From an uncultured Chloroflexia bacterium (GTDB lineage Bacteria > Chloroflexota > Limnocylindria > Limnocylindrales > CSP1-4): a stretch of 64,000 bases of DNA. Each line of letters opens with the position of its first letter. Position 1 is the stretch's first letter. A model generated the notes under the pieces. It did not search any database, was not told where the DNA came from, and worked only from the letters and a program-made list of their open reading frames with translations. A program made the translations under genes and the position numbers. The stretch covers positions 141,064-205,063 of the forward strand of contig CAVTWU010000017.1 of the NCBI GenBank assembly GCA_963738475.1, written 5' to 3'. This document shows positions 2,553-50,026 of the stretch, piece after piece.

Positions 2553-5494
2553 TCAGCCCTCGGGGGCTTCGAGTTCGCCCGGGTCGGCGAAGGCCGTGCC
2601 GCCGCGGGACGTGCCGGCCGCGGCCATCGCCTCGCGGTAGACCGCGATCGCGTCGTCGACGCAGCACACGACCAGGTCGCCCGGGATGGCCCGGCGGAGC
2701 GCGGCGCGCACGGCGGCCATCTCCTCGAGGATCTTCTCGGCCCGGGTCGCGCGGGCCGTCCCGGCGGCCTTCGCCGCCCGGACGCCCTCGAGCACGTTCG
2801 TGGCGGTCTCGCCCGGCTGTCGTCCGCGCAGGTTCTTGTCCTCGCGGACGATGAGCTCGTCGAACGCGCCGGCCGCGATCGCGCCGTAGTCGCGCTGGTC
2901 CTGGTCGCGCCGGTCGCCCGGGATGCCGAGGACGCCGATCGCCCGGCCCGGTCCGAGTCGCGCCGCCGGACGTCGCCGATCCGGCCCGCCTTCGTCTGCG
3001 TGTCGACCATCATCCGGTTGACGAAGTCGGCCAGCTGGCGCATCCCGTCGACGTTGTGGCAGTAGTCGATGACGACGCGGACCCCGCCGACATCGACCAG
3101 GTTGAGCCGGCCCGGCGCCTGGAAGAACGACGTCGAGAAGGTCCGCAGGCCCTGGCGGATGTCGTGCAGGTGGGCGCCCGGCGGCCCACGCCGCGGCCGC
3201 CGCGGCCAGCGCGTTCGCCACGTTCATCCGCGCCCGGCCGCCGAACGTGGCCGGGATGAGGTGCGTGTACAGCACCGGCATCGTCCGCGACCCGAGCTTG
3301 CAGGACGATGAGCTCGCCCTCGTCGGTCATCTCGAGGCGGAACGCCGCCCCGCCACGGCCGGTGTGGCCGTCGACCCGGTCGTAGCCGTCCTCGCCCTTG
3401 GTCATCGACATGCTGAACAGCACGACCCGGCCGGCGCAGTGGCGGCCCATCCGGTAGACGTGGCTGTCGTCGGCGTTGAGGACCGCGGTCCCCGAGCGCG
3501 GCACGGCCTCGACGACGACGCCCTTGACGTTGGCCAGCTGGCCGATCGAATCGATGCCGCCGAGGCCCAGGTGGTCGCCGGTCACGTTGGTCACGACGGC
3601 GACGTCGTTGCGGTCGTAGCCGAGGCCCTCGCGCAGGATCCCGCCGCGGGCGACCTCGAAGACGGCGGTGTCCACGGTCGGGTTCTGGAGGACCATCTGG
3701 GCCGACTTCGGCCCGGACATGTCGCCCTTCTTGATGAGCCGGCCGTCGACGACGATGCCGTCCGTCGAGGTCATCCCGACCCGCCGGCCCATCAGCTTCA
3801 GGATGTGGGCGATCATCCGGACGGTCGTCGTCTTGCCGTTCGTGCCGGTCACGGCGACGATCGGGATCCGCGCCGACGAGCCGGCCGGGAACAGCGAATC
3901 GATGACCGGCCGGGCGACGTACTGCGGCTCGCCCTCGGTCGGGTGGGTGTGCATCCGGAAGCCGGGCGCGGCGTTGACCTCGACGATCGCGCCGCCGGTC
4001 TCGCGGACGGGGGTCGTGATGTCCGGGCAGATGAAGTCGATGCCGGCGACGTCGAGGCCCACGATCCGGGCCGCCGTCTCGGCGATCTCGACGTTGTCCG
4101 GGTGGGCCTCCATCGTCCGGTCGATCGACGTCCCGCCGGTCGACATGTTGCCGGTCAGGGCGAGCTTGACCCAGGTCCCCTCGGGCAGGACGTCGTCCAT
4201 GCCGTGGCCCTGGTCGCGGACCAGCTCCTCGGCCGCCTCGTCCACCTTGATCCGGGTCAGGACCTTCTCGTGGCCGATGCCGCGGCGCGGATCGCTGTTG
4301 GCGATGTCGACCAGCTGGCGGACGGTGTGCTCGCCGTCGCCGGTCACGCTGGCCGGGACGCGCTCGGCGATGGCCGCGACCTTGCCGCCGATGACCAGGC
4401 AGCGATAGTCGTTGCCGGCCACGTACGACTCGACGACGACGTCGCCGCCGCGGCTCTGGGCGAGCGCGCCCTGGAACGCGGCCCGGACCGCCTCCTCGGA
4501 GCGCAGGTCGAGGTGGACGCCGCGGCCGTGGTTGCCGTCGAGCGGCTTGACGACGCACGGGTAGCCGATGCCGCTTCGCGGCCGCGACCGCGCCCTCCTC
4601 GGTGTCGACGACGTCCGCGCGCGGCACCGGCAGCCCGGCCGAGTCGAGCAGCCGGTTGGTCAGGCTCTTGTCCGACGCGATGTCGACGCCGATCGCCGAG
4701 GTCAGCGACGTCATCGTCGCCCGGATGCGCTGCTGGTGGACGCCGTGCCCGAACTGGACGAGCGAGTGGCGGTCGAGCCGGATGAACGGGATGTCGCGGC
4801 TGACCGCCTCGTCGATGAGGGCCTGGGTGGACGGGCCGAACGCCTGGCGCTCGGCCAGGCGGATGAGCCGCTCCATCTCGGGCGCGAAGTCGAACGACGA
4901 CGTCGGGGTCGTCCGGCGCGACGAGGTGGTTGACCAGGGCGACGGCCATCCGGCCGGCCTCGAGGCCGACCGCCTCCTCGCGGTACTCGAAGATGCAGTT
5001 GTACTGGCCGTGCTTGCCGGCGGCCCGGGTCTTGCCGTGGCGGACGTCCGTGCCGGCGAGGTTCTGGAACTCGAGGGCGACGTGCTCGGCGATGTGGCCG
5101 ACCCACGTCCCCTCGCGCAGCCGGCTGATGAAGCCGCCGCGGCGGCCGAGCGAGCAGGCGTGATCCTCGAGGCTCGGCATGCAGCGCGACGAGCGCGTCG
5201 GTGAAGTCCGGGATCAGGTTGGACGGGTACTCCTCGAGCGACGCCGAGGTCCACGAGCATGGCGGATGACCGGCTCGCGCGCCCAGTAGTTCGGGCCGCG
5301 CAGGACGCGGGTCTCGAGGACGCGCAGGGTCGGGGCGGGACCGCCGGTCGGGGCCGGCTTGGCGGCCCGTGCCGACTTGCTGGGCTGCGTCGCCGTGGCC
5401 GCTGCGGTCGCCGACTTCGAGGCCTTCGCGGCGCCCTTGGTCGGCGTTCGCTTCGGTCCGGACGCTGATGAGCTCTGGGCCACGGGACTCCTCC
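2553..5494 (-). CDS. cphA: Cyanophycin synthetase CphA (N, ATP-grasp and Mur-ligase domains) with an Ala/Lys-rich N-terminal extension; at least 5 apparent frameshifts
   Basis: Fragments across frames read: N domain LRVLETRVLRGPNYWAREPVIR / LEEYPSNLIPDFTDALVALH / PSLEDHACSLGRRGGFISRLREGTWVGHIAEHVALEFQNLAG; linker DIPFIRLDRHSLVQFGHGVHQQRIRATMTS; ATP-grasp MAGNDYRCLVIGGKVAAIAERVPASVTGDGEHTV...VEVNAAPGFRMH; M domain VTGTNGKTTTVRMIAHILK...TNVTGDHLG; C-terminus HNVANALAAAAAAW...VCCVDDAIAVYREAMAAAG with a stop at 2553. Confidence 0.8.
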
Positions 5495-40130: not shown

Positions 40131-40263
40131 GCTCGCTCGTGCGGCCGGCGCTGCGACGTCCCGGCGCTCGGGCGCACCGGAATCGGCCAGATAAGCGCCA
40201 GATAAGCGGCCATCGCTATGGTCCAGGTCCACCCCGCCGCGTACCCTCGATGGGTCCACGAAG

Positions 40264-42036
40264 GGGAGTGCCAGTGGTCGTGGGACACGCCGCGTTACGA
40301 CGAACACGTGTCGCGCTGATCGCCGGGGTCCTGGCGATCGGGTGGAGCGCCGGGGCCGGCCCATTCGGGTTGCGCGCGGTGGTGGCAAGTCCCGCGCCCA
40401 CGCGTCGTCATCGTGGTGGGTCCATCGGGCGCCGCCACGGACCGGTATCGCGCGCAGGGTCGCGAGGCGGCCGCCGTCGCCCGCCGGTTCACCAGCGACG
40501 TCACGGAGCTGTACTCCCCGAACGCCACGTGGCCGGCCGTCCGTGCCGCCCTCCAGGGCGCCAGCGTCGTCATCTACATGGGCCACGGCAACGGCTGGCC
40601 GAGCCCGCACCGCGACTCGCTGTTCCCGGCGACGCCAGAACGGGTTCGGGCTCAACCCGAGCGCCGGCGGCAACGACTCGGACCACCAGTACTTCGGCGA
40701 GGCCGCCGTCGGGTCGCAGATCCGCCTGGCCTCGAACGCGGTCGTCCTGCTCCACCACCTGTGCTACGCCAGCGGCCTCTCCGAGCCCGGGCGTCCCCGA
40801 AGGCTCGCTGGACATCGCCCGCCAGCGCGTCGACAACTTCGCGGCCGGGTTCATCCGGGCCGGCGCCTCGGCGGTCATCGCCGACGCGTACGCGAGTCCG
40901 ACGGCGTACCTCGCGGCGATCCTCGGTGGCCGACGGTCCATCGATTCGACCTGGCGCCAGCGCGCCGAACGCCAACGGGCACGCGTTCGCGTTCGATAGC
41001 GTCCGAAGCCCGGGCTTCATCGCCCAGATGGATCCCGAGACCGAGACGTCCGGGTTCACGCGCTCGATCGTCCTGCGCGCCGGCCTGACCCCGGCCGACG
41101 TCCGCGCCGGCGCCCAGGGCACGGGCGGACCCGTCGGTCCCGTGGGCCCCGTGGTGCCCAGTCTCGTGGCCAGCCGGGGTCCGGTTCGGTTCGCCGGCCT
41201 TCGCCACGCGGCCGACCGCGGGCGCCGCCGGACGCCTGACGTTGCCGCTCAAGATCGGCGATGCGGCCGCGCTCCCGGATGGCATCGGGGCCAGCCTCCG
41301 CTGGGAGGCGCTCGAGCTCGTGACGCCGCCCGCGGCCCCGCCGACGCCCGGGTCCTGCCCTGCCCCGGATGCGCCGGTCCCGGGGTTCCCCGGTGAGCAG
41401 GCACCGCCGCCCATCGAGCCACTGCCGCCCCCGGACGGCGCCGACCTGGTCGTCGCCGAGCAGCCTGGCGACGTCGTGGCGCCGGTGGCGACGACCGTAC
41501 GAAGCGGCGCGCTCGTCGTCCCGGTCCAGGCGCCCGTCGCGCCAGGTCGCTACCGGCTGACCGTGACCCTGCACGACGCCGATGGCGTGGCCTTCGATGC
41601 CGCGACCCAGGCGCTGCTGCCGACCCTGCTCGTTCGCGTGACCGCCGATGTCGACGGCGCGATCTTCGTCGCCCCGACCATGACGCTGACCGCCGGCCGT
41701 GCCGTCGACCTCCCGATCCGGGTCACCAACCTCGGCGCCGACGCCTGGGGCACGGAAGCCGTCCTGGACGTGACCGGCGGAACCGCCGGACGGCCGGCCA
41801 CGATGGCCCGGATCGTCGGCTGGTGGCTCCCGTCCGGCGAGGCCATCGCCGCGACCGACCTGCCGCCGGCGCTCGCGTCCGGGCGCGACCACGGACCTGT
41901 CGCTCGCCCTGCTCGTGCCGCGAACGCCGGGCGTCCACACCCTCGTACTGGACCTCGTGACGCCGGACGGCGTGTCGCTGATGGCGGCCGGGATCGGCCC
42001 GACGCTCGTCCGCATCACGGTGGTCGCCCCGCGCTG
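40264..42036 (+). CDS. Secreted caspase-fold (clan CD-like) cysteine peptidase candidate with C-terminal Ig-like repeats; frameshifted
   Basis: A signal-like N-terminus is followed by VVIYMGHGNGW, then about 45 aa later NAVVLLHHLCYASG, a His-Gly ... Cys spacing like caspase, C11 or C25 enzymes. The C-terminal repeats read YRLTVTLHDADGVAFDAATQALLPTLLVRV and HTLVLDLVTPDGVSLMAAGIGPTLVRITVV. Confidence 0.45.
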
Positions 42037-42797
42037 AGGGCACGGGACGAACACCTAGGACCGCGAGCCGTCCTGGCCTCCTTCGCAGCGACGCCAGGTA
42101 GGCCGACGCGCCCTTGTAGTCGGGCCACGTCACGTCGTGCTCGTACGCTGACCGGCGCCTCCGACAGTCGATGGCCTGGACCGAAGCCTTCGATCGCGAT
42201 CGCACGCGGACCAGCGGCCCGCGCCAGGTCCCGGTCGAGCGTGGCGAGATCACATGCCAGGGTCTCGGCAAGCACGAGGTATTGGGCGTCGTACGCCGTG
42301 ATCCGGAAGCGCTCCACGGCACCGATCGCCAGGAGGAGTTGGCCGCGATCGAGATCGCGCGTCTCGATCCGAAACGTCTCCAGCGTGTGGACGGCCTCAA
42401 GCGTCTGTTCACCGGTCTGCCGATGCCGGAGCAACAAGGTGTTGGCGACTTCCCACCAGAATGGTCGCGGAACGACCAGCCGCGCTCCCTCGATCGACCA
42501 GTCCCTGAACCGATCGATGATCGCCGGCGTCTGCTCTTCGAGGCGAAGCCGTGCGATCGCCAACGACGCATCCAGCACGATGAGCGGCGCCCTACGCATC
42601 GTCGTCGTCCTCGTCGCGCAGGTCATCACGATGGTGAGGACGTTCGCGACTTCGAGCCAGAAGTGCGCCGGGACGACGTTCCGTCCGCCTGCACGGACGT
42701 GGTCCTGCAACAGACCCGCCGCGACTGGCCCGTTCGGCTCGCCGAGGGCGATCGCGATCGCGATCGAGGCATCGATGACCATGGGTCGTCGCGCCAT
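42015..42797 (-). CDS. vapC: PIN-domain toxin (VapC-like), copy A, with an internally duplicated N-terminal segment
   Basis: MVIDASIAIAIALGEP...NVVPAHFWLEVANVL is followed by a second LIVLDASLAIARLRLEE...LVVPRPFWWEVANTLLL, then ITAYDAQYLVLAETLACDLATLDRDLARAAG. Confidence 0.55.
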   Translation of the reverse strand: MARRPMVIDASIAIAIALGEPNGPVAAGLLQDHVRAGGRNVVPAHFWLEVANVLTIVMTCATRTTTMRRAPLIVLDASLAIARLRLEEQTPAIIDRFRDWSIEGARLVVPRPFWWEVANTLLLRHRQTGEQTLEAVHTLETFRIETRDLDRGQLLLAIGAVERFRITAYDAQYLVLAETLACDLATLDRDLARAAGPRAIAIEGFGPGHRLSEAPVSVRARRDVARLQGRVGLPGVAAKEARTARGPRCSSRALSAGRPP

Positions 42798-42809
42798 CAG
42801 TCGTCGCTC

Positions 42810-43136
42810 AGGCCAGTCCGGGCGGCTCGCGAGATCCGCTCGTCCCGCTCCTCGTGGTCACCCGGATCCACTCCGTCGATGGTCACCTGTCGCCCGGCTC
42901 GGCGGATACTTCGATCGCCATCTCGACTGCCGAAGTCATCGATTCGATCCAGGGCGGCAAGCCGCCGCGACTTGAAGCGCCTCGCGGTCGGACTCCAGGC
43001 TATCGCCCTCTTCGACCGAGACGAGGTACGCCAGGGGCCGGTGGTCGCGCTCGATGAGGATCCGCTCGCCGGCCGAGGCCGCGTCGAGGATCTCGCCGAG
43101 GCGCTTGCGCATGTCCATCGCCGTCACGGTTCTCAT
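42810..43136 (-). CDS. Phd/YefM-type antitoxin, copy A
   Basis: MRTVTAMDMRKRLGEILDAASAGERILIERDHRPLAYLVSVEEGDSL is paralogous to the antitoxin at 44305-44616. Confidence 0.55.
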
Positions 43137-43183
43137 GGTCGATCATGATAATCGCCTATCACGACCGGTCAAGAGGTACCCTT

Positions 43184-43770
43184 CGCCCATGGTCGAGTCC
43201 AACGCGGTCCCCGGGTTCCTGCCGAGCACGCACGGGCTGCGCTTCGCCAACCGATTCACGCCCGGGCCGACGCTCACGTTCGGGCCGATCGATCCGCGCT
43301 GGGTCGGGCATCGGCGATGCGTCGGCCGGGCTGTGCGGCGGCATGAGCTGGCTCGTGCGCGAGCGGTTCGAGGCCGGCCTCCCCGTCCCGGCGGACACGC
43401 TTCCGCCGGCCCATGGCACGCCCCTGTTCCGTGGCCTCGTCCGCCGCCAGGTGCTGTCGCTCGACTGGCTCCGGACGCCGATCCGGTTCTGGTGGATGGG
43501 CGCCATCGGCCAGGCCAGCGCCGCGGAACGGGTCCACGCCGTCGAGTGGCCGCGGATCCGCGCCGACATCGATGCCGGCCGGCTCGCGATGGTCGGCCTC
43601 GTCCGGCACCAGGGCGCCAGCCCGTGGCGGCTGACCCAGAGCCACCAGGTCCTCGCCTACGCCTACGAGATCGACGAGCGACGGCCGGCCCGTCACGATC
43701 CGCATCTACGACCCGAACCTGCCGGGCCGCGACGACGTGGTCGTCACCGAGGCGCGCTACCTCCGCCTGC
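43184..43770 (+). CDS. Hypothetical protein, possible papain-like Cys/His hydrolase fold, sandwiched between duplicated TA modules
   Basis: MVESNAVPGFLPSTHGLRFANRF...IGDASAGLCGGMSWLVRERFEAG...LTQSHQVLAYAYEID. The Cys lies at a helix N-terminus with a downstream His. Confidence 0.35.
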
Positions 43771-44347
43771 CGTAGCGGTCCGGCCCCGCCGCGGTCTCCG
43801 CCCGGAGCCGCGCAAGATACGCGGAGGCGCGCTTGTAGTTGGGCCACGTCACCTCGTGTTCGTAGGCACCGGCGCGTCGTGCAGCCGCCGACCCTGACCG
43901 AAGATGATCGCCCGCGAGCCCGCCGCCGTGGCCAGCGTCAGGTCCAGCGTCGCGAGCTGGCCGTCGACCGTCTCGGCCAGGGCGAGGTACATCGCGTCGT
44001 ACGGGGTCAGGCCGTGCCGCTCGACGCGATCGATGACCTGGATGAGCATCGGGCGGGACGAGTCCACGGTCTGGATACCGAATGAGTCGAGCCGATGCAC
44101 GGTGGCAAGCATCCGTTCGCCGTTCGTCCCGGGCACGCGGCGGATCCGGTTGATGACCTCCAGCCAGAAGTGGGCCGGGACAAGCAGGGCCCGTCGTCGA
44201 TCGAGCCACTGCATCGAGCGCGCCGGCGATCTCCGGGGCTTCGGGCTCATCCAGGATCCGGGCAAGCGCGACCGACGCGTCGATGACGATCGGTGGGCCG
44301 GCCGTCACTTGTCGTCGTCCCGATGGTCGCGGTCGTACCGGACCCAC
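43757..44347 (-). CDS. vapC: PIN-domain toxin (VapC-like), copy B
   Basis: PPIVIDASVALARILDEPEAP, ALLVPAHFWLEVINRI and GLTPYDAMYLALAETVDGQLATLDLTLATAAGSRAI. The C-terminal region shares a YEHEVTWPNYKRASAYLARLR block with copy A. Confidence 0.55.
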   Translation of the reverse strand: MGPVRPRPSGRRQVTAGPPIVIDASVALARILDEPEAPEIAGALDAVARSTTGPACPGPLLAGGHQPDPPRARDERRTDACHRASARLIRYPDRGLVPPDAHPGHRSRRAARPDPVRRDVPRPGRDGRRPARDAGPDAGHGGGLAGDHLRSGSAAARRAGAYEHEVTWPNYKRASAYLARLRAETAAGPDRYGRRR

Positions 44348-44616
44348 TCGGCGGCGCCCATCTCACCCGCGTTGCCGCCCCGTTCGCGATACCACTCCTT
44401 CGGCAAACCTGGTGAGTTCCTCGAGTCGCCGGCGCGACGACGGGCGATCTCCTCTTCCCGGTCCTTGCCACTCGTCACGCGAACCCCGTCCTCGTATGAC
44501 ACGACGAAGGCCAGGGGCTTGTGGTCGCGCTCGATCAGGATCGATTCGCCCGCCGAGGCGGCATCCAGGATCTCGCCGAGCTTCTGTCGCAGTTCGGTCG
44601 CCGTGATCGTCCTCAT
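44305..44616 (-). CDS. Phd/YefM-type antitoxin, copy B
   Basis: MRTITATELRQKLGEILDAASAGESILIERDHKPLAFVVSYEDGVRV. The ORF is intact at 103 aa and overlaps the vapC start. Confidence 0.65.
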   Translation of the reverse strand: MRTITATELRQKLGEILDAASAGESILIERDHKPLAFVVSYEDGVRVTSGKDREEEIARRRAGDSRNSPGLPKEWYRERGGNAGEMGAAEWVRYDRDHRDDDK

Positions 44617-44727
44617 GGTCGACCATCATAGTCAGCCAGCATGGTTGGTCAAGGCGGACGCATCAGCATTCGCGTCATGATCTAGACATCAGCCAGCATC
44701 GCTCGATGCCGACGATACTTCCTCGCT

Positions 44728-45168
44728 ATGAGACGGATAGCTGATACCAGCTGACCGAACAGCTCGCCTCCGAGGTCGGCCAGGCCGCCGAGATGCTCGG
44801 CGTCACGGTCGAGACCCTCCGCCGCTGGGAGACCGCCGGGATCCTGCGCATGGAGCGATCCGACGGCGGCCAGCGACTCGTCTCGATGGCGGAGGTCTCG
44901 CGGCTCCTCGACGAGCGCCGCCGCACGACCACGGACCGTCCGATCGTCGCGTCGTCCGCGCGCAATCGGTTCGTCGGGATCGTCACCCGGGTCGAGCGCG
45001 ACGGGGTCGCCGCGGTCGTCGAGGTCATCGCCGGTCCGCATCGACTCGTCAGCCTGATGACCGCCGAGGCCGTGCTGGACCTGGACCTGAAGGTCGGCGA
45101 CGAGGCGGTCTGCGTCATCAAGGCGACGAACGTCATGGTCGAGATCCCGTCGACCAAGGAGTCGCGCA
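44728..45168 (+). CDS. MerR-type HTH regulator with a molybdate-binding MOP/TOBE domain (ModE-like)
   Basis: The HTH reads EMLGVTVETLRRWETAGIL. The MOP domain reads SARNRFVGIVTRVERDGVAAVVEVIAGPHRLVSLMTAEAVLDLDLKVGDEAVCVIKATNVMVE. Confidence 0.55.
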
Positions 45169-46020
45169 GGATGATGCGCCGTCGTCGATCCTGGTCGTCG
45201 ACGGTCGTCGTCGCGTGCCTGCCTGCTGGCCGGTTGCACGCAGCGGCGTCGGCGCCGCCGCCCGGCCTCGACTCGCGCCGACCGCGGCACCGCCTCCCCC
45301 ACCCCGACGCCCGTCGAGCTCACGATCTTCGCCGCCGCGTCGCTCAAGGGCGCCCTCGAAGCCGCGCAGGACGCCTACGAGACCGCCAACCCGGGCACGA
45401 CCCTGACGATCTCGACCGACTCGTCCGCCGCGCTCAAGACCCAGATCGAGCAGGGCGCCCCGGCCGACCTCTTCCTGTCCGCCGACACGAAGAACCCGCA
45501 GGCGCTCGTCGACGCCGGGCTGACCGACGGAGCCGCCGTCGACTTCGCCGGCAACAAGCTCGTCGTCATCGTCCCGACCGACGACCCGGCGGGCATCACG
45601 ACGCCAGCCGACCTGGCCACCCCCGGCGTGAAGATCATCGCGGCCGGCGACGAGGTGCCGATCACCAAGTACGCGAACCAGCTCGTCGACAACCTGGCCA
45701 AGGAGCCGGGCTACCCGGCCGACTTCGTCGCGGCCTACCAGGCGAACATCGTGTCGAAGGAAGACAACGTCAAGGCCGTCGTCGCCAAGCTGGAGCTGGG
45801 CGAGGGCGACGCCGCGATCGTGTATGTCACCGATGCCAAGATCTCGACGAAGGTGGCCTCGGTGGAGGTTCCCGACGCGGCCAACGTCGTCGCGACGTAC
45901 GCCGGTGTCGTCGTCAAGGCGACCGAGAGCCCCGACGCCGCCGCCGCCTTCCTGACCTGGCTGGCCGGCCCCGACGGACAGGCGATCCTCAGCGGGTTCG
46001 GGTTCCTGCCCCCGTCGTGA
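45169..46020 (+). CDS. modA: Molybdate ABC transporter substrate-binding lipoprotein
   Basis: A lipobox LLAGC, then ELTIFAAASLKGALEAAQDAYE, LFLSAD, KLVVIVP and AIVYVTDAK. Confidence 0.75.
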
Positions 46021-46890
46021 CCGTCGCCACCGCGCGCGCCGGGAGCCGCCGCCGCTCCAGCTGGGGTGACCGCTCGCTCACGACGGTCGCGATCCTGTTC
46101 GCCCTGTTCCTGGGGCTGCCCGTGCTCACGCTGGTGGGACGGGCGGTCCTGGACGGCTCGCTCGCGATCGCGGCCGGTTCGCCGGAGGTGCTCGACGCGC
46201 TCTGGCTGAGCCTCGTCACGACATCGATCAGCCTGGTCATCACCGTGGTGCTCGGGCCTGCCGCTGGCGATCGTCCTGGCCCGCCGCGAGTTCCGCGGCA
46301 AGGGCTGGCTCGAGACCGTGGTGGACCTGCCGATCGTGCTGCCGCCGTCGGTCGCCGGGCTCGCGCTGCTGCTCGTCTTCGGGCGGCGCGGGCTGCTCAA
46401 CGCGCCGTTCGAGTTCCTGGGCATCTCCGTCGCGTTCACGACGATCGCCGTGATCCTCGCCCAGGTCTTCGTGTCGGCGCCGTTCTTCATCCGGTCCGCG
46501 CGGACCGGGATCGCCGGCGTGGATCGCGACATCGAGGATGCGGCCCGGGTCGACGGCGCGTCCGAGCGGGCACTCTTTCGGATCGGTCACGGTGCCGCTC
46601 GCGGGTGCCGCGCTGGCGGCCGGCCTGGTCATGACCTGGGCGCGGTCACTCGGCGAATTCGGCGCCACGATCATGTTCGCGGGCAACGTCGAGGGCAAGA
46701 CCCAGACGCTGCCGCTCGTCGTCTACAGCGAGTTCCAGGGCGGCAACCTGGACGCGTCGGTGGCCGCCGCGGCGATCCTGGTCCTCGCCGCGTTCGGCGT
46801 CCTCATCGCGGTCCGTGTGTTCCACTGGGGCCGGCGTGCTGGATGTTCGAGGCATCAGCTAGGGCCAGGGTCGAGTGGCTATCCTGGCTG
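46017..46890 (+). CDS. modB: Molybdate ABC transporter permease
   Basis: DLPIVLPPSVAGLALLLVFGRRGLL and EAARVDGAS...ALAAGLVMTWARSLGEFGATIMFAGNV carry the EAA loop. There is no in-frame stop before the next gene. Confidence 0.7.
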
Positions 46891-46894
46891 CATG

Positions 46895-49800
46895 GCTGAG
46901 CCCCTTGCCCCCGGCCTCCACGAAGCGTTGGTTACCGAGGCGATCGCCCAATCTATAGCCGCGCGGGAGCTCGAGGGTTGGTGGGCAGATGTCGCCAACG
47001 CGGACCCGGCCCTCCTACCTGACCTTCTGGCGCGCTATGTGCATGACGTCGCCCGTCGCTCGATTGCGAGCATGCGTGGCGACGATGACGCCAAACTCCT
47101 CGCCCAGGTAGCCGTTGTCAACACCCTGCTCCGGGTACTCCGAGAGTCGGCGCCGGACGGTGTCGTCATAGAACTCGACAACGTCGCGGACGGATCTAGA
47201 GTCCTCCGGGAGGTTCGGCCGCCGAGTCTTGCGCCGATCGTCCGAAGGCCGACGCGCCGACCAATGATCTCGCTTCGAGAGAGCGCCCTCCTAGTCAACG
47301 GTCACCGGGACTACCAAATCGGATCCGAAGTTGTTCGGGAACTCGAGAGCGCCGACCGGGTCGATCTGCTGAGCGCCTTCGTCCGATTTGCAGGTCTCCG
47401 GCTGGTTCGAGAACAACTAGCGGCCTTTGTAGGACGTGGCGGCCAGCTTCGAGTCATCACCAGCGTCTACACGGGCTCAACTGAGAAGAAGGCACTTGAC
47501 GCGATCGTCTCGATCGGAGGCGAGGTCAAGGTCTCCTACGAGACCTCCCAGACGCGGTTGCACGCCAAGGCCTGGCTGTTCAAGAGAGACTCAGGCTTTC
47601 ATACCGCATACATCGGATCGTCCAATCTCACGCACTCGGCCCTGGTCGAGGGTCTCGAGTGGAACGTGCGTGTTAGCGAAGTCGACAACCCAGCAATCGT
47701 TGAACGTGTCGGTGCGGCATTTGAGCAATATTGGAATGAGCCTGAGTTCGTCTCGTATGACCCCGATGTCGATGGCGAGCGACTCGCCAACGCCCTTTCG
47801 AGTCAGAAGGGTGGCGACAAGGACCAAGGGCTCGAATCCATACTTGCGCTCAACTTGGAGTTTGAGCCCAAGTCGCATCAATCCCAGATGCTCGAGGCGC
47901 TCGAGGCAGAACGGCGCCACGGCTATCGACGCAATCTCGTAGTTGCGGCCACGGGCACCGGTAAGACCTGGGTTTCGGCCTTTGACTTTCGGAGGCTTCA
48001 GGCCTCCGGTCTGAGCAGACTTCTCTTCGTCGCTCATCGAGACGAGATCTTGCGACAGAGCCAGCAGGTCTTCCAACTAGTGCTGCGGGACTCCGCCTTC
48101 GGGGAGCGGTTCATCGCCGATGAGCGCCCCGTCGTCGGCGAGCATGTCTTCGCTTCGATCCAGTCGTTGGCGCGTCACATCGACGAGATGGATCCACGAG
48201 CGTGGGACGTGGTGATCGTCGACGAGTTTCACCACGCTGAGGCGGCAACTTACAAGAGACTGCTCGAGCACCTGCAGCCGAGGGTCCTGGTTGGCCTCAC
48301 GGCGACGCCAGAGCGCGCCGATGGAAAGTCGATCCTCCACTACTTCGATGACCGGATCGCGTGTGACCTGCGCCTCTGGCAGGCCCTCGACGAAGGATTG
48401 CTGGCACCGTTCCACTACTTCGGCATCAACGACGGTACCGACCTTCGAGATGTCGGGTTCACTCGGGGGCAGTACGCAATCGGCGAGCTTGAGGGTGTCT
48501 ACACGACAGACTCGAATCGAGTTGCCCGCATCATCGATGCGGTTACCAAGGAAGTCCCAGACCCGCGAACGATGCGGGCACTTGGATTCTGCGTCGGGGT
48601 GAGCCATGCGACGTTCATGGCGCAGGAGTTCTCACGGGCTGGACTCCCCTCGATCGTTCTGAGCGGGACATCGACGTCGGAGGACCGTGCGTCCGGAATC
48701 CGCAAACTGCGTCGAGGCGAGATCCGGGCGATCTTCACGGTGGACCTCTTCAACGAAGGCGTCGACATACCTGAGGTCGACACCGTTCTGATGTTGCGAC
48801 CGACGGAGAGCGCGACTGTCTTTCTGCAGCAGCTTGGCCGGGGCCTCCGTCACGCACCCGGAAAGTCGGTCCTGACAGTGCTCGACTTCATTGGACAGGC
48901 TCATCAAAGCTATCGCTTCGACGTTCGATTTCGAGCCTTGGTCGGCGGCACGAGGAAGCAGGTGGCATCGGCGATCGAGGAGGGGTTCCCGCTCACGCCT
49001 CCAGGATGCGCAATTCGCCTTGATCGCATTGCTGCCTCCTACGTGCTTGAGAACATCCGGGCCAGCCTTCACGCGGGCCGGCGCCTCCTCGTGGACGATC
49101 TCAAGTCCCTCCCGCCAACCACGACCCTGGGTGAGTACATCGACCGGTCCGGCCATGACCTGGACGAGATCTACGCCAGTCCGAGCGCGGGGCACTCCTT
49201 CACGGACATTCGACGCCGGGCTGGCTTTCTTGAGTCGGTGCGCGAGGACGTCAGCTTGGAGCGTGCGATCGGCAGAACGCTGCATGTGGACGATGACGAG
49301 CGACTAGGCACCTGGATCGAATGGCTGGCACGGGACTCAAGCCCGCCCACCTTTCCGCTCGAAAGTCGAGACGGCCGGCTCCAGCTGATGCTCCACGCCG
49401 TTATCGGCCAACGCGGTCGCGCCGTCAGCCAACGAGCCGAGGTGCTCGCCGAGATGTGGGCGACGCCGATTCGCCGGGAGTATCTGGAGCTGTTCAGGCT
49501 GCTCCGAGATCGCTCACGGGCCAATTCGGTCGCGATCGATCCCGAAGGACTCATCCCCATTCACAGTCATGCCACCTACGGCCTGTACGAGATCGTCGCG
49601 GCCTACGGATTGATAAACAAGGACCAGCTACGTGAGACGCGAGAGGGTGTCATTTGGGCCAAGACGAGCCTCACTGACTTGCTCTTTGTGACGCTAGATA
49701 AGTCCGATGCCGAGTACTCCGTGACAACGCGCTATCAGGACTACCCGATCTCGCCGACCCTCTTCCACTGGGAGTCCCAGAACGCCACGGCTGCGTCCTC

Positions 49801-50026
49801 CGAAACCGGACGACGTTATGTCGAGCACCGTGACCGTGGCTCGAGCGTCGTGCTGTTTGTGCGGACTCGAAAGAGCGACGATCGGGGTCAAACCGCTCCG
49901 TATGTGTGCCTGGGTGGTGCCAAGTACGTCCAACACGAGTCGGAGCGGCCCATGCGCATCACCTGGTCCCTCGATCGCGGCATGCCGCCCGAGTTGTTCC
50001 AGTCTTCCAAGGTTGCCGCTGGCTAG
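46895..50026 (+). CDS. PLD-family (HKD) nuclease, SF2 DEAD/DEAH helicase and DUF3427 fusion protein; intact, lower GC; candidate stand-alone defence gene
   Basis: The HKD motif reads RLHAKAWLFKRDSGFHTAYIGSSNLTHSAL. Helicase motif I reads VVAATGTGKTW, motif II VIVDEFHHAE, motif III LTATPER and motif VI QQLGRGLRH. The C-terminal region is DUF3427-like, ending ISPTLFHWESQNATAASSETGRRYVEH...VCLGGAKYV. The 1043-aa reading has no frameshift and GC is about 60% against about 72% in the flanks. Confidence 0.8.
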   Translation, partial: AEPLAPGLHEALVTEAIAQSIAARELEGWWADVANADPALLPDLLARYVHDVARRSIASMRGDDDAKLLAQVAVVNTLLRVLRESAPDGVVIELDNVADGSRVLREVRPPSLAPIVRRPTRRPMISLRESALLVNGHRDYQIGSEVVRELESADRVDLLSAFVRFAGLRLVREQLAAFVGRGGQLRVITSVYTGSTEKKALDAIVSIGGEVKVSYETSQTRLHAKAWLFKRDSGFHTAYIGSSNLTHSALVEGLEWNVRVSEVDNPAIVERVGAAFEQYWNEPEFVSYDPDVDGERLANALSSQKGGDKDQGLESILALNLEFEPKSHQSQMLEALEAERRHGYRRNLVVAATGTGKTWVSAFDFRRLQASGLSRLLFVAHRDEILRQSQQVFQLVLRDSAFGERFIADERPVVGEHVFASIQSLARHIDEMDPRAWDVVIVDEFHHAEAATYKRLLEHLQPRVLVGLTATPERADGKSILHYFDDRIACDLRLWQALDEGLLAPFHYFGINDGTDLRDVGFTRGQYAIGELEGVYTTDSNRVARIIDAVTKEVPDPRTMRALGFCVGVSHATFMAQEFSRAGLPSIVLSGTSTSEDRASGIRKLRRGEIRAIFTVDLFNEGVDIPEVDTVLMLRPTESATVFLQQLGRGLRHAPGKSVLTVLDFIGQAHQSYRFDVRFRALVGGTRKQVASAIEEGFPLTPPGCAIRLDRIAASYVLENIRASLHAGRRLLVDDLKSLPPTTTLGEYIDRSGHDLDEIYASPSAGHSFTDIRRRAGFLESVREDVSLERAIGRTLHVDDDERLGTWIEWLARDSSPPTFPLESRDGRLQLMLHAVIGQRGRAVSQRAEVLAEMWATPIRREYLELFRLLRDRSRANSVAIDPEGLIPIHSHATYGLYEIVAAYGLINKDQLRETREGVIWAKTSLTDLLFVTLDKSDAEYSVTTRYQDYPISPTLFHWESQNATAASSETGRRYVEHRDRGSSVVLFVRTRKSDDRGQTAPYVCLGGAKYVQHESERPMRITWSLDRGMPPELFQSSKVAAG

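Follow-up and report, generated by a model that had tools for sequence, protein, structure and literature searches.

The DNA studied here (the window) is a stretch of 64,000 nucleotides of contig CAVTWU010000017.1 from an uncultured Chloroflexia bacterium, with a G+C content of ~73%. Within 42015-44680, two toxin-antitoxin (TA) operons, each composed of a Phd/YefM antitoxin gene and a PIN toxin gene, lie on the minus strand and flank a plus-strand gene that is referred to below as MID (middle gene). The TA pairs belong to a known kind of system, i.e., VapBC-like with a Phd-type antitoxin, and the locus holds two paralogues together with the scar of a third. The presence of such a paralogous pair on both sides of MID is a real observation and not a product of chance. 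The features of the locus are given here, with loci from other genomes designated by L numbers and homologous proteins by P numbers.

Module B, minus strand: PhdB, 44616-44305, and PIN_B, from a GTG at 44308 to 43757
Module A, minus strand: PhdA, 43136 to ~42797; an extra segment of 227 bp, 42862-42636; PIN_A', 42599 to ~42055
44625-44652, minus: promoter of module B, TTGACC-16 nt-TATGAT, 10/12 consensus matches
44615-44626: perfect 12-nt palindrome ATGGTCGACCAT, from the -10 box to the PhdB start codon, candidate operator
44305-44616, minus: PhdB antitoxin, 103 amino acids (aa) as read, with a Phd/YefM N-domain and the C-terminal motif EWVRYDRDHRDDDK
43757-44308, minus: PIN_B toxin including its tail, PF01850 at 45.1 bits, frame broken at ~44226 (+1) and ~43866 (-1)
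43802-43867, minus: YEH block B, encoding AYEHEVTWPNYKRASAYLARLR, tail of PIN_B
43189-43775, plus: MID, stand-alone gene between modules A and B, 194 aa after correction, frame broken at ~43308 and ~43678, with Cys49, His152 and Asp174
43170-43188, plus in the window: -10-like element of MID (at ~3980-4000 in L009-L087)
43145-43172, minus: promoter of module A, TTGACC-16 nt-TATCAT, back to back with the MID upstream region
43135-43146: candidate operator, imperfect palindrome ATGGTCGATCAT covering the -10 box and start codon of PhdA
42797-43136, minus: PhdA antitoxin, PF02604 at 42.9 bits, open reading frame (ORF) as read ending early at 42936
42636-42862, minus: window-specific segment of 227 bp, with an antitoxin 3' end and the initial 54-55 codons of a third type of PIN
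42055-42599, minus: PIN_A' toxin including its tail, 181 aa after correction, indels at 42147 (+1), 42083 (-1) and 42070 (-1)
42084-42148, minus: YEH block A, encoding AYEHDVTWPDYKGASAYLASLR, tail of PIN_A'

An earlier note on this DNA had described two duplicated Phd/YefM-PIN modules, each with its own promoter and an operator-like palindrome, and domains, promoters and palindromes all bear this description out, with the palindromes as candidate operators. In Pfam searches the PhdYeFM_antitox domain (PF02604) was detected in both antitoxins (42.9 bits in PhdA and 37.7 bits in PhdB, cut-off 29.8), and the PIN domain (PF01850) in both toxins (38.7 bits, and 45.1 bits in PIN_B, cut-off 23.6). 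The layout is that of type II TA systems, the antitoxin gene standing first in each pair, on the same strand as the toxin gene and overlapping it; the overlaps are 4 nt and 8 nt in L004, and in module B of the window the GTG start of PIN_B overlaps the PhdB stop in GTGA at 44305-44308. At the DNA level the similarity between modules A and B starts at the -35 box and ends at the LR codons of the toxin tail, and the two PIN paralogues are 51% identical overall. The antitoxin C-terminus EW(V/I)R(Y/W)DRDHRD is common to both modules.

A consensus scan of 41950-44800 returned exactly two sigma-70-like promoters, compared with 0.2 expected. Both read TTGACC-16 nt-TATCAT or TATGAT, with the -10 box ending 8 nt ahead of the Phd ATG, which leaves no space for a Shine-Dalgarno sequence, and the Phd-PIN mRNAs are therefore predicted to be leaderless. 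The palindrome ATGRTCGAYCAT occurs twice in the 64 kb, both times at a Phd start, compared with 0.01 occurrences expected; it was located by a direct pattern search, since the arms of these 12-nt palindromes are under the length limit of the repeat finder, by which they were overlooked. At the PhdB start of L002 (~4200-4215), another perfect palindrome, ATGGCTAGCCAT, is found in the place of ATGGTCGACCAT, a compensatory change of the kind that would fit a protein-binding operator.

In PhdB, insertions of 1 nt at ~44435, ~44425 and ~44403 garble ~10 codons before the frame is restored, so that 44403-44435 reads ARRRAGDSRNSPGLPKEW in the window and ARHLLAIEELTRFAKEW in L004 and the ORF seems whole; the L004 counterpart is intact with 102 aa. 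PIN_B contains the acidic residues D10, E50, D104 and D122, which are conserved among its homologues, and the frame break at ~43866 sits where the PIN core meets the tail. The last 19 nt of PIN_B overlap the 3' end of MID on the opposite strand (32 nt in L004), and B-type toxins read ~16 codons past the tail into the antisense of the MID 3' end. Since the similarity between A and B ends at the LR codons and B reads on from there, it is suggested that module B came from a duplication with its right edge just past the tail. In module A, the PhdA frame is broken by single-base insertions at ~42968 and ~42923, and the ORF of PIN_A' as read extends to 42015. The PIN_A' start overlaps the stop of an antitoxin 3' remnant (ATGCGTAG), and an intact homologue (P0001) is 95% identical to it.

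The segment at 42636-42862 is missing from L001-L004 and 88.5% identical to L021 3451-3676, where an antitoxin 3' end and the initial 54 codons of a third type of PIN stand beside MID. The segment is thus the remnant of an L021-like third module, retained in the window as a recombination scar. Such a module appears to have been partly replaced by the PIN_A module, with the joint near the conserved EWIR codons of the antitoxin. The earlier note had recognized an internal duplication of the N-terminal part of PIN copy A: the second PIN N-terminus is real and is fused in frame to the downstream part, but it is only ~45% identical to the main copy and comes from the third module. An internal tandem duplication in PIN_A was rejected, because the segment matches the third paralogue in L021.

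The C-terminal tail of the PIN toxins

A conserved block, the YEH block, lies at the end of each PIN gene. Blocks A and B differ at 14 nt; in the YEH frame, 10 of these differences fall on third codon positions and 9 are synonymous. In the earlier note the block was placed after the PIN gene and regarded as translated, either as a conserved C-terminal extension of the toxins or as a tiny overlapping ORF. Translation holds good, yet the block is the 3' end of the PIN gene itself and not a sequence 3' of it, with its frame shifted relative to the PIN core by +1 in copy A and by -1 in copy B. A profile of both frame-corrected toxins returned 350 homologues; among the 120 of these that were listed, most are 175-190 aa long and span 85-92% of the corrected query. 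In their alignments the block is in frame with the PIN core, showing the consensus RLxExPAxYEHDVTWPNYKxASAYLAxLRAE and ending a few residues later. T154, W155, P156, Y158, S162, L168 and R169 are invariant in 52 sequences, and the idea of a conserved extension is thus supported. The overlapping ORF was not upheld, as the homologues read from the PIN core straight into the block.

The YEH block, as judged from these alignments, is the normal in-frame C-terminal tail (~45 aa) of a PIN clade, and it takes this place in more than 100 homologues with lengths of 175-187 aa. It is the most conserved part of these toxins, and for this reason it stood out between paralogues of 51% identity. Looser tails of the same design, e.g., TWPxWxGAAAYLxELRRRA, occur in relatives of 35-50% identity, which indicates that the tail belongs to a wider PIN clade. 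A tail specific to MID-linked toxins was considered and rejected, since the looser tails occur without MID.

In the AlphaFold2 model of the PIN toxin, the VapC-like core is confident (predicted local distance difference test, pLDDT, >94 for residues 11-130), and the solved VapC structures 2fe1, 4xgq, 5x3t and 3tnd were matched with a Foldseek probability of 1.00. PAE0151 and PAE2754 also match the PIN toxin by sequence, in the core only. The structural neighbours are all VapC toxins of 120-145 aa without the tail and cover only the PIN core. The tail itself is poorly defined in the monomer (pLDDT 49-75): residues 135-158, with YEHDVTWPNYK, form a coil and residues 159-180, with ASAYLAxLRAE, a helix. 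Strong conservation together with low confidence in the monomer points to an interaction surface, most likely one that contacts the antitoxin or the substrate or serves oligomerisation. A literature search for C-terminal extensions of VapC turned up only those of the antitoxin VapB.

The middle gene and its association with the TA pairs

The MID ORF carries the motifs GLCGGMS and SHQVLAYAYE. More than 1,500 close homologues (68-96% identity) were found, none of them named and none with a Pfam domain, and a library clustered at 50% identity contains 1,649 representatives at E <=0.001, in which MID is stand-alone or a domain of larger proteins. In 40 sequences down to 34% identity, no substitution occurs at P12, N21, G47, C49, G50, G51, R86, H152, P175 and N176, and at least 90% of the sequences retain D174. 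The structure predicted by AlphaFold2 has high confidence (pLDDT 93, predicted template modelling score 0.88) and places Cys49 at the start of the helix 49-61, His152 at the start of the strand 152-161 and Asp174 after the strand 167-173. Foldseek matches to the PDB are weak and local (E >=0.01, TM 0.2-0.27, 58-104 columns), and the first 21 are all papain-like cysteine proteases, including IdeC/IdeS/Mac-1, TDE0362, UfSP, staphopain, SpeB and ZUFSP. Pfam traces are below significance, i.e., BtrH_N at E 0.027 (3/40 members) and Peptidase_C39_2 at E 0.3, both of which we take to be papain-like families.

On the strength of the conserved residues and the model, MID is probably a papain-like Cys-His-Asp enzyme. 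It is assigned at the superfamily level only, because there was no significant match in Pfam or NCBIfam or by sequence in the PDB, and it falls in no defined peptidase family. A profile search of the PDB with the MID alignment gave no match up to E 10, and an NCBIfam scan of four MID and PIN proteins was likewise without a match. The papain-like nature guessed in the earlier note is therefore supported at that level, by the conserved Cys and His, the Cys at a helix N-terminus and the papain-like fold matches, and no named family is supported for MID. In other organisms, the MID domain is fused to a KAP P-loop NTPase, a ricin-type lectin, FG-GAP repeats, a fungal fucose lectin or an aegerolysin-like region (P0324, P0354, P0374, P0289 and P0352). 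This suggests, from domain composition, an effector or enzyme module that is used in several contexts.

Upstream of MID, a -10-like element (GCGTAGACT, GCGTAGGAT or GCGTACGAT) stands 8-10 nt ahead of the ATG, whether or not a TA module is nearby. A Shine-Dalgarno sequence is not apparent ahead of MID in the window or in L009-L087, and the MID mRNA is probably leaderless as well, like the Phd operons. In the window the start codons of PhdA and MID are 52 bp apart. The Phd -35 box lies 2-4 nt from the MID element GCGTAGACT or GCGTAGGAT, so that the divergent promoters overlap.

The loci compared belong to the Chloroflexota, lineage Candidatus Limnocylindrales. The neighbourhood of MID is conserved in these, genes for a DsbH-like thioredoxin and NUDIX lying to one side and genes for an Eis-like acetyltransferase, LigD and Ku to the other, with variable genes around it (Mrr, Vsr and a DNA methylase, PLD-helicase). 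A census was taken of 80 species-level genome loci carrying MID. A complete Phd-PIN(tail) pair was present in 35, divergent and directly upstream of MID in 33 of these (~55 bp between start codons) and elsewhere in the locus in the other two (L038 and L060). Neither TA gene was found in 40 loci, and in five the pair was partial or cut by a contig end. A convergent downstream module was present in addition only in L011, L017 and L021 among the 80; the sandwich also occurs in L002, L004, L091 and L093, and L006 and L007 have two tandem modules on one side. In metagenome loci, PIN toxins with the strict tail (YEHDVTWPxYK) adjoin MID in 15 of 16 evaluable cases, the exception being L102. Looser-tail relatives have the Phd gene and lack MID. 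The distant MID homologue P0259 has no TA neighbour, and one short contig (L115, 1-1634) carries a MID homologue (40% identity) and a Phd-PIN(tail) pair (39% identity) 330 bp apart. Judged from that contig, MID and TA pairs may have become associated before the strict-tail subfamily existed, or on more than one occasion.

MID is a conserved Limnocylindrales gene and not part of a cassette. The earlier note had proposed an abortive-infection or addiction cassette in which an effector is enclosed by two TA modules. Because MID is free of TA genes in 40 of the 80 species loci and no PADLOC model was matched by MID, the two PIN toxins or the two Phd antitoxins (five proteins), such a composite cassette is unsupported; moreover, the sandwich is confined to one small subclade.

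A functional three-part system formed by the strict-tail Phd-PIN pair and the papain-like MID nevertheless has to be weighed, and it is considered unlikely. In its possible variants, MID would process the PIN tail or the antitoxin, or TA autoregulation would gate MID through the 55-bp divergent region. There is accordingly only a small chance that the invariant YEHDVTWPNYK...AYLAxLR tail is a docking or cleavage site for MID, or that the TA operator gates the leaderless promoter of MID. The adjacency in 15 of 16 strict-tail loci, set against relatives of 35-50% identity that have Phd without MID, speaks for such a link, as do the complete module directly upstream of MID in 33 of 80 loci with the two promoters only 2-4 nt apart, the duplicates that remain at this locus and the exceptional conservation of the tail within the toxin. 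On the other hand, half of the species have MID without a TA module and keep the same -10 element, conservation is far higher in MID than in the TA genes, and the general form of the tail occurs in PIN relatives with no MID nearby. MID is also encoded on the opposite strand, and known defence models gave no match. A single ancestral insertion with vertical inheritance, local duplication and allele replacement explains the adjacency of the strict tail and MID.

Frame breaks in the window

The collinear short-read contig L004 (4.6 kb) is 89-92% identical to the window and has all frames open, in the order MerR/TOBE, Phd (102 aa), PIN (187 aa), MID (208 aa, opposite strand), Phd (107 aa), PIN (181 aa) and the next gene; module A is also intact in L003, with 95% protein identity. 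Between MerR/TOBE and the gene g484, the window differs from L004 by 22 single-base indels, which hit PhdB, PIN_B, MID, PhdA, PIN_A and the unrelated g484. With the indels removed, the ratios of nonsynonymous to synonymous substitution rates (dN/dS) relative to L004 were 0.03 for MID, 0.13 for PIN_A, 0.13 for g484, 0.17 for PIN_B, 0.20 for PhdB and 0.40 for PhdA, which indicates that the frames are under purifying selection. In MID, there are 2 nonsynonymous changes and 2 frame-breaking indels.

A hidden Markov model (HMM) of the phase of G+C at third codon positions (GC3) detected 83 places in the window at which the frame switches on the same strand with no stop codon close by, i.e., 1.3/kb, five of which (40633, 40788, 41173, 41877 and 43678) are at or within ~15 nt of indels defined by L004. 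The rates elsewhere were 0.08/kb in short-read loci and 0.27/kb in Nanopore 'MFD contig_N' loci, the latter with a wide spread between metagenome-assembled genomes (MAGs), and the window rate is thus ~16 times the short-read baseline. It was reported that the MFD genomes are Nanopore-only assemblies with one Medaka polish (PMC12313526). L001 and L002, from the Nanopore MFD project, contain the same locus with the same genes broken at other positions. The frame breaks of the window most probably stem from errors in the assembly of long metagenome reads rather than from biology. Many gene segments, the toxin tails among them, are out of frame because of the frequent single-base indels, and since these occur throughout the window, any reading of it at the ORF level needs frame correction first. 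The proviso of error correction in the earlier note was apt in this respect.

The frame breaks could instead be real, with both TA modules and their neighbours having recently decayed into pseudogenes in this strain, but this is quite improbable. As given, both PIN/tail junctions and the interiors of PhdA, PIN_B and MID are indeed frameshifted, and the 227-bp remnant of the third module testifies to a genuine rearrangement at the locus. Recent decay of these genes, however, does not agree with switches that run through all 64 kb at such a rate, with purifying selection in every gene after removal of the indels (strongest in MID), or with sister long-read assemblies broken elsewhere in the same genes and short-read assemblies that are intact. 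Still far less probable is the YEH block as an independent small overlapping ORF or as a segment reached by programmed ribosomal frameshifting, since, although in both window copies the block and the PIN core are in different frames, the shifts go in opposite directions, homologues of 95% and 89-92% identity keep one frame (on which grounds a programmed frameshift was rejected) and there is neither a shared conserved start codon nor a shared slippery site.

It is thus likely that the locus consists of two type II TA operons of the VapBC kind, with tails mis-framed by assembly indels, and that MID is not part of a cassette. Several points weigh against this reading. The window as given contains no intact ORF of PIN plus tail. 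Most of the indels are C or G insertions outside long homopolymers, unlike the classic Nanopore deletions, and that the window comes from a Nanopore assembly is something we infer. The noise is also uneven, a gene of 3.1 kb at 46889-50026 being wholly intact. Finally, the adjacency of the strict tail and MID in 15 of 16 loci was taken as synteny and could mean function.

Under the reading of two VapBC-kind operons, and by analogy with known systems, each operon would be transcribed as a leaderless mRNA from its TTGACC-16-TATNAT promoter. A Phd dimer, through its N-domain and with PIN as co-repressor, would bind the palindrome over the -10 box and start codon and repress its own operon. The acidic antitoxin C-terminus, EW[VI]R[YW]DRDHRD, would plug the PIN active site (D10/E50/D104/D122), and on loss of the antitoxin the PIN toxin would be freed as a Mg2+-dependent RNase that cleaves RNA. 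A TA module of this subfamily would already have been present ~55 bp upstream of MID in many species; the second module, converging on the MID 3' end, and the remnant of the third would have resulted from local duplication and recombination in one subclade.

Neighbouring genes, significance and known systems

Several other genes of the window were noted beside the TA operons. The intact gene at 46889-50026 (+) encodes 1045 aa with PLD nuclease, ResIII/DEAD helicase, Helicase_C and DUF3427 domains. It lies in a stretch of lower G+C content (62-66%, compared with ~73% elsewhere), has no frame breaks, unlike its surroundings, and from its sequence looks like an acquired defence-type gene; in L008, a similar PLD-helicase of 938 aa directly adjoins MID. 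A MerR/TOBE regulator followed by molybdate-type transporter genes, with a ModA-like binding protein and a ModB-like permease, occupies 44793-46870 (+). The frame of the permease is broken near 46584, and its C-terminus is merged with the next helicase ORF in the ORF list. Downstream of PIN_A, a conserved protein of at least 484 aa with an Ig-like N_BRCA1_IG match is encoded at 40139-42037 (+) and at 3176-4630 in L004. Its MGHGNGWPSPH...LLHHLCYASG motif suggests a His/Cys hydrolase, and at least five frame breaks affect it in the window.

The main lesson is a cautionary one, i.e., conserved 'extra' blocks and odd ORFs in long-read MAGs can be mere gene ends that indels have displaced. Modestly new are two by-products, namely an uncharacterised clade of VapC-type toxins that are most conserved in an equally uncharacterised tail absent from solved VapC structures, and a large, likewise uncharacterised family (~1,650 clusters at 50% identity) of small papain-like Cys-His-Asp proteins with no Pfam or NCBIfam model. 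The unusually stable position of the TA module beside MID offers a small lead on the question whether TA autoregulation can be recruited for the control of a neighbouring host gene. If a tie between PIN and MID were true, it would amount to a protease-linked tripartite TA system kept at one chromosomal site across the Limnocylindrales.

Among known proteins, MID resembles the papain-like cysteine peptidases and acyltransferases of clan CA (IdeS/Mac-1 of C66, C39-like, BtrH) in the order Cys...His...Asp and in the Cys at a helix N-terminus, with its His and Asp on successive strands 22 residues apart and IdeC, IdeS and TDE0362 as top Foldseek matches. It differs in its size of ~190 aa, its apparently cytoplasmic location and its conserved N-terminal GFxPSxxGFxFxN motif, and its fold matches are local only.

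As regards the locus as a whole, a TA pair with an additional conserved C-terminal extension and a third conserved gene alongside recalls the toxin-antitoxin-chaperone (TAC) systems, e.g., the HigBA-SecB-like system of M. tuberculosis. In TAC systems it is the antitoxin that carries the extension, and the chaperone is an obligatory, co-transcribed component. Here the toxin carries it, and the third gene is papain-like, on the opposite strand and free of TA genes in half of the species. With Phd-Doc and YefM-YoeB, the modules share the N-domain, which matches PF02604 and TIGR01552, and the first position of the antitoxin in the operon; the partner is a PIN RNase and not Doc or YoeB, and the neutralising C-terminus is unrelated.

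The closest comparison is with VapBC systems (PAE0151/PAE2754 of Pyrobaculum aerophilum, VapBC26/VapBC30 of M. tuberculosis and VapBC of Shigella). The present modules differ from these in the DNA-binding domain of the antitoxin, which is Phd/YefM, and in the conserved tail of ~45 aa on the toxin, which is in no solved VapC among the structural matches. The pairing of a Phd/YefM antitoxin with a PIN toxin is already known. In common with VapBC, the antitoxin gene comes first with an overlap of 4-8 nt, the fold of the toxin is that of PIN proteins and its four acidic residues are conserved, and a palindrome lies over the promoter. The C-termini of VapB antitoxins are rich in Arg and acidic residues, are pseudo-palindromic and plug two VapC active sites (PMC5389673), and the C-terminus of the window antitoxins is likewise acidic and Arg-rich.

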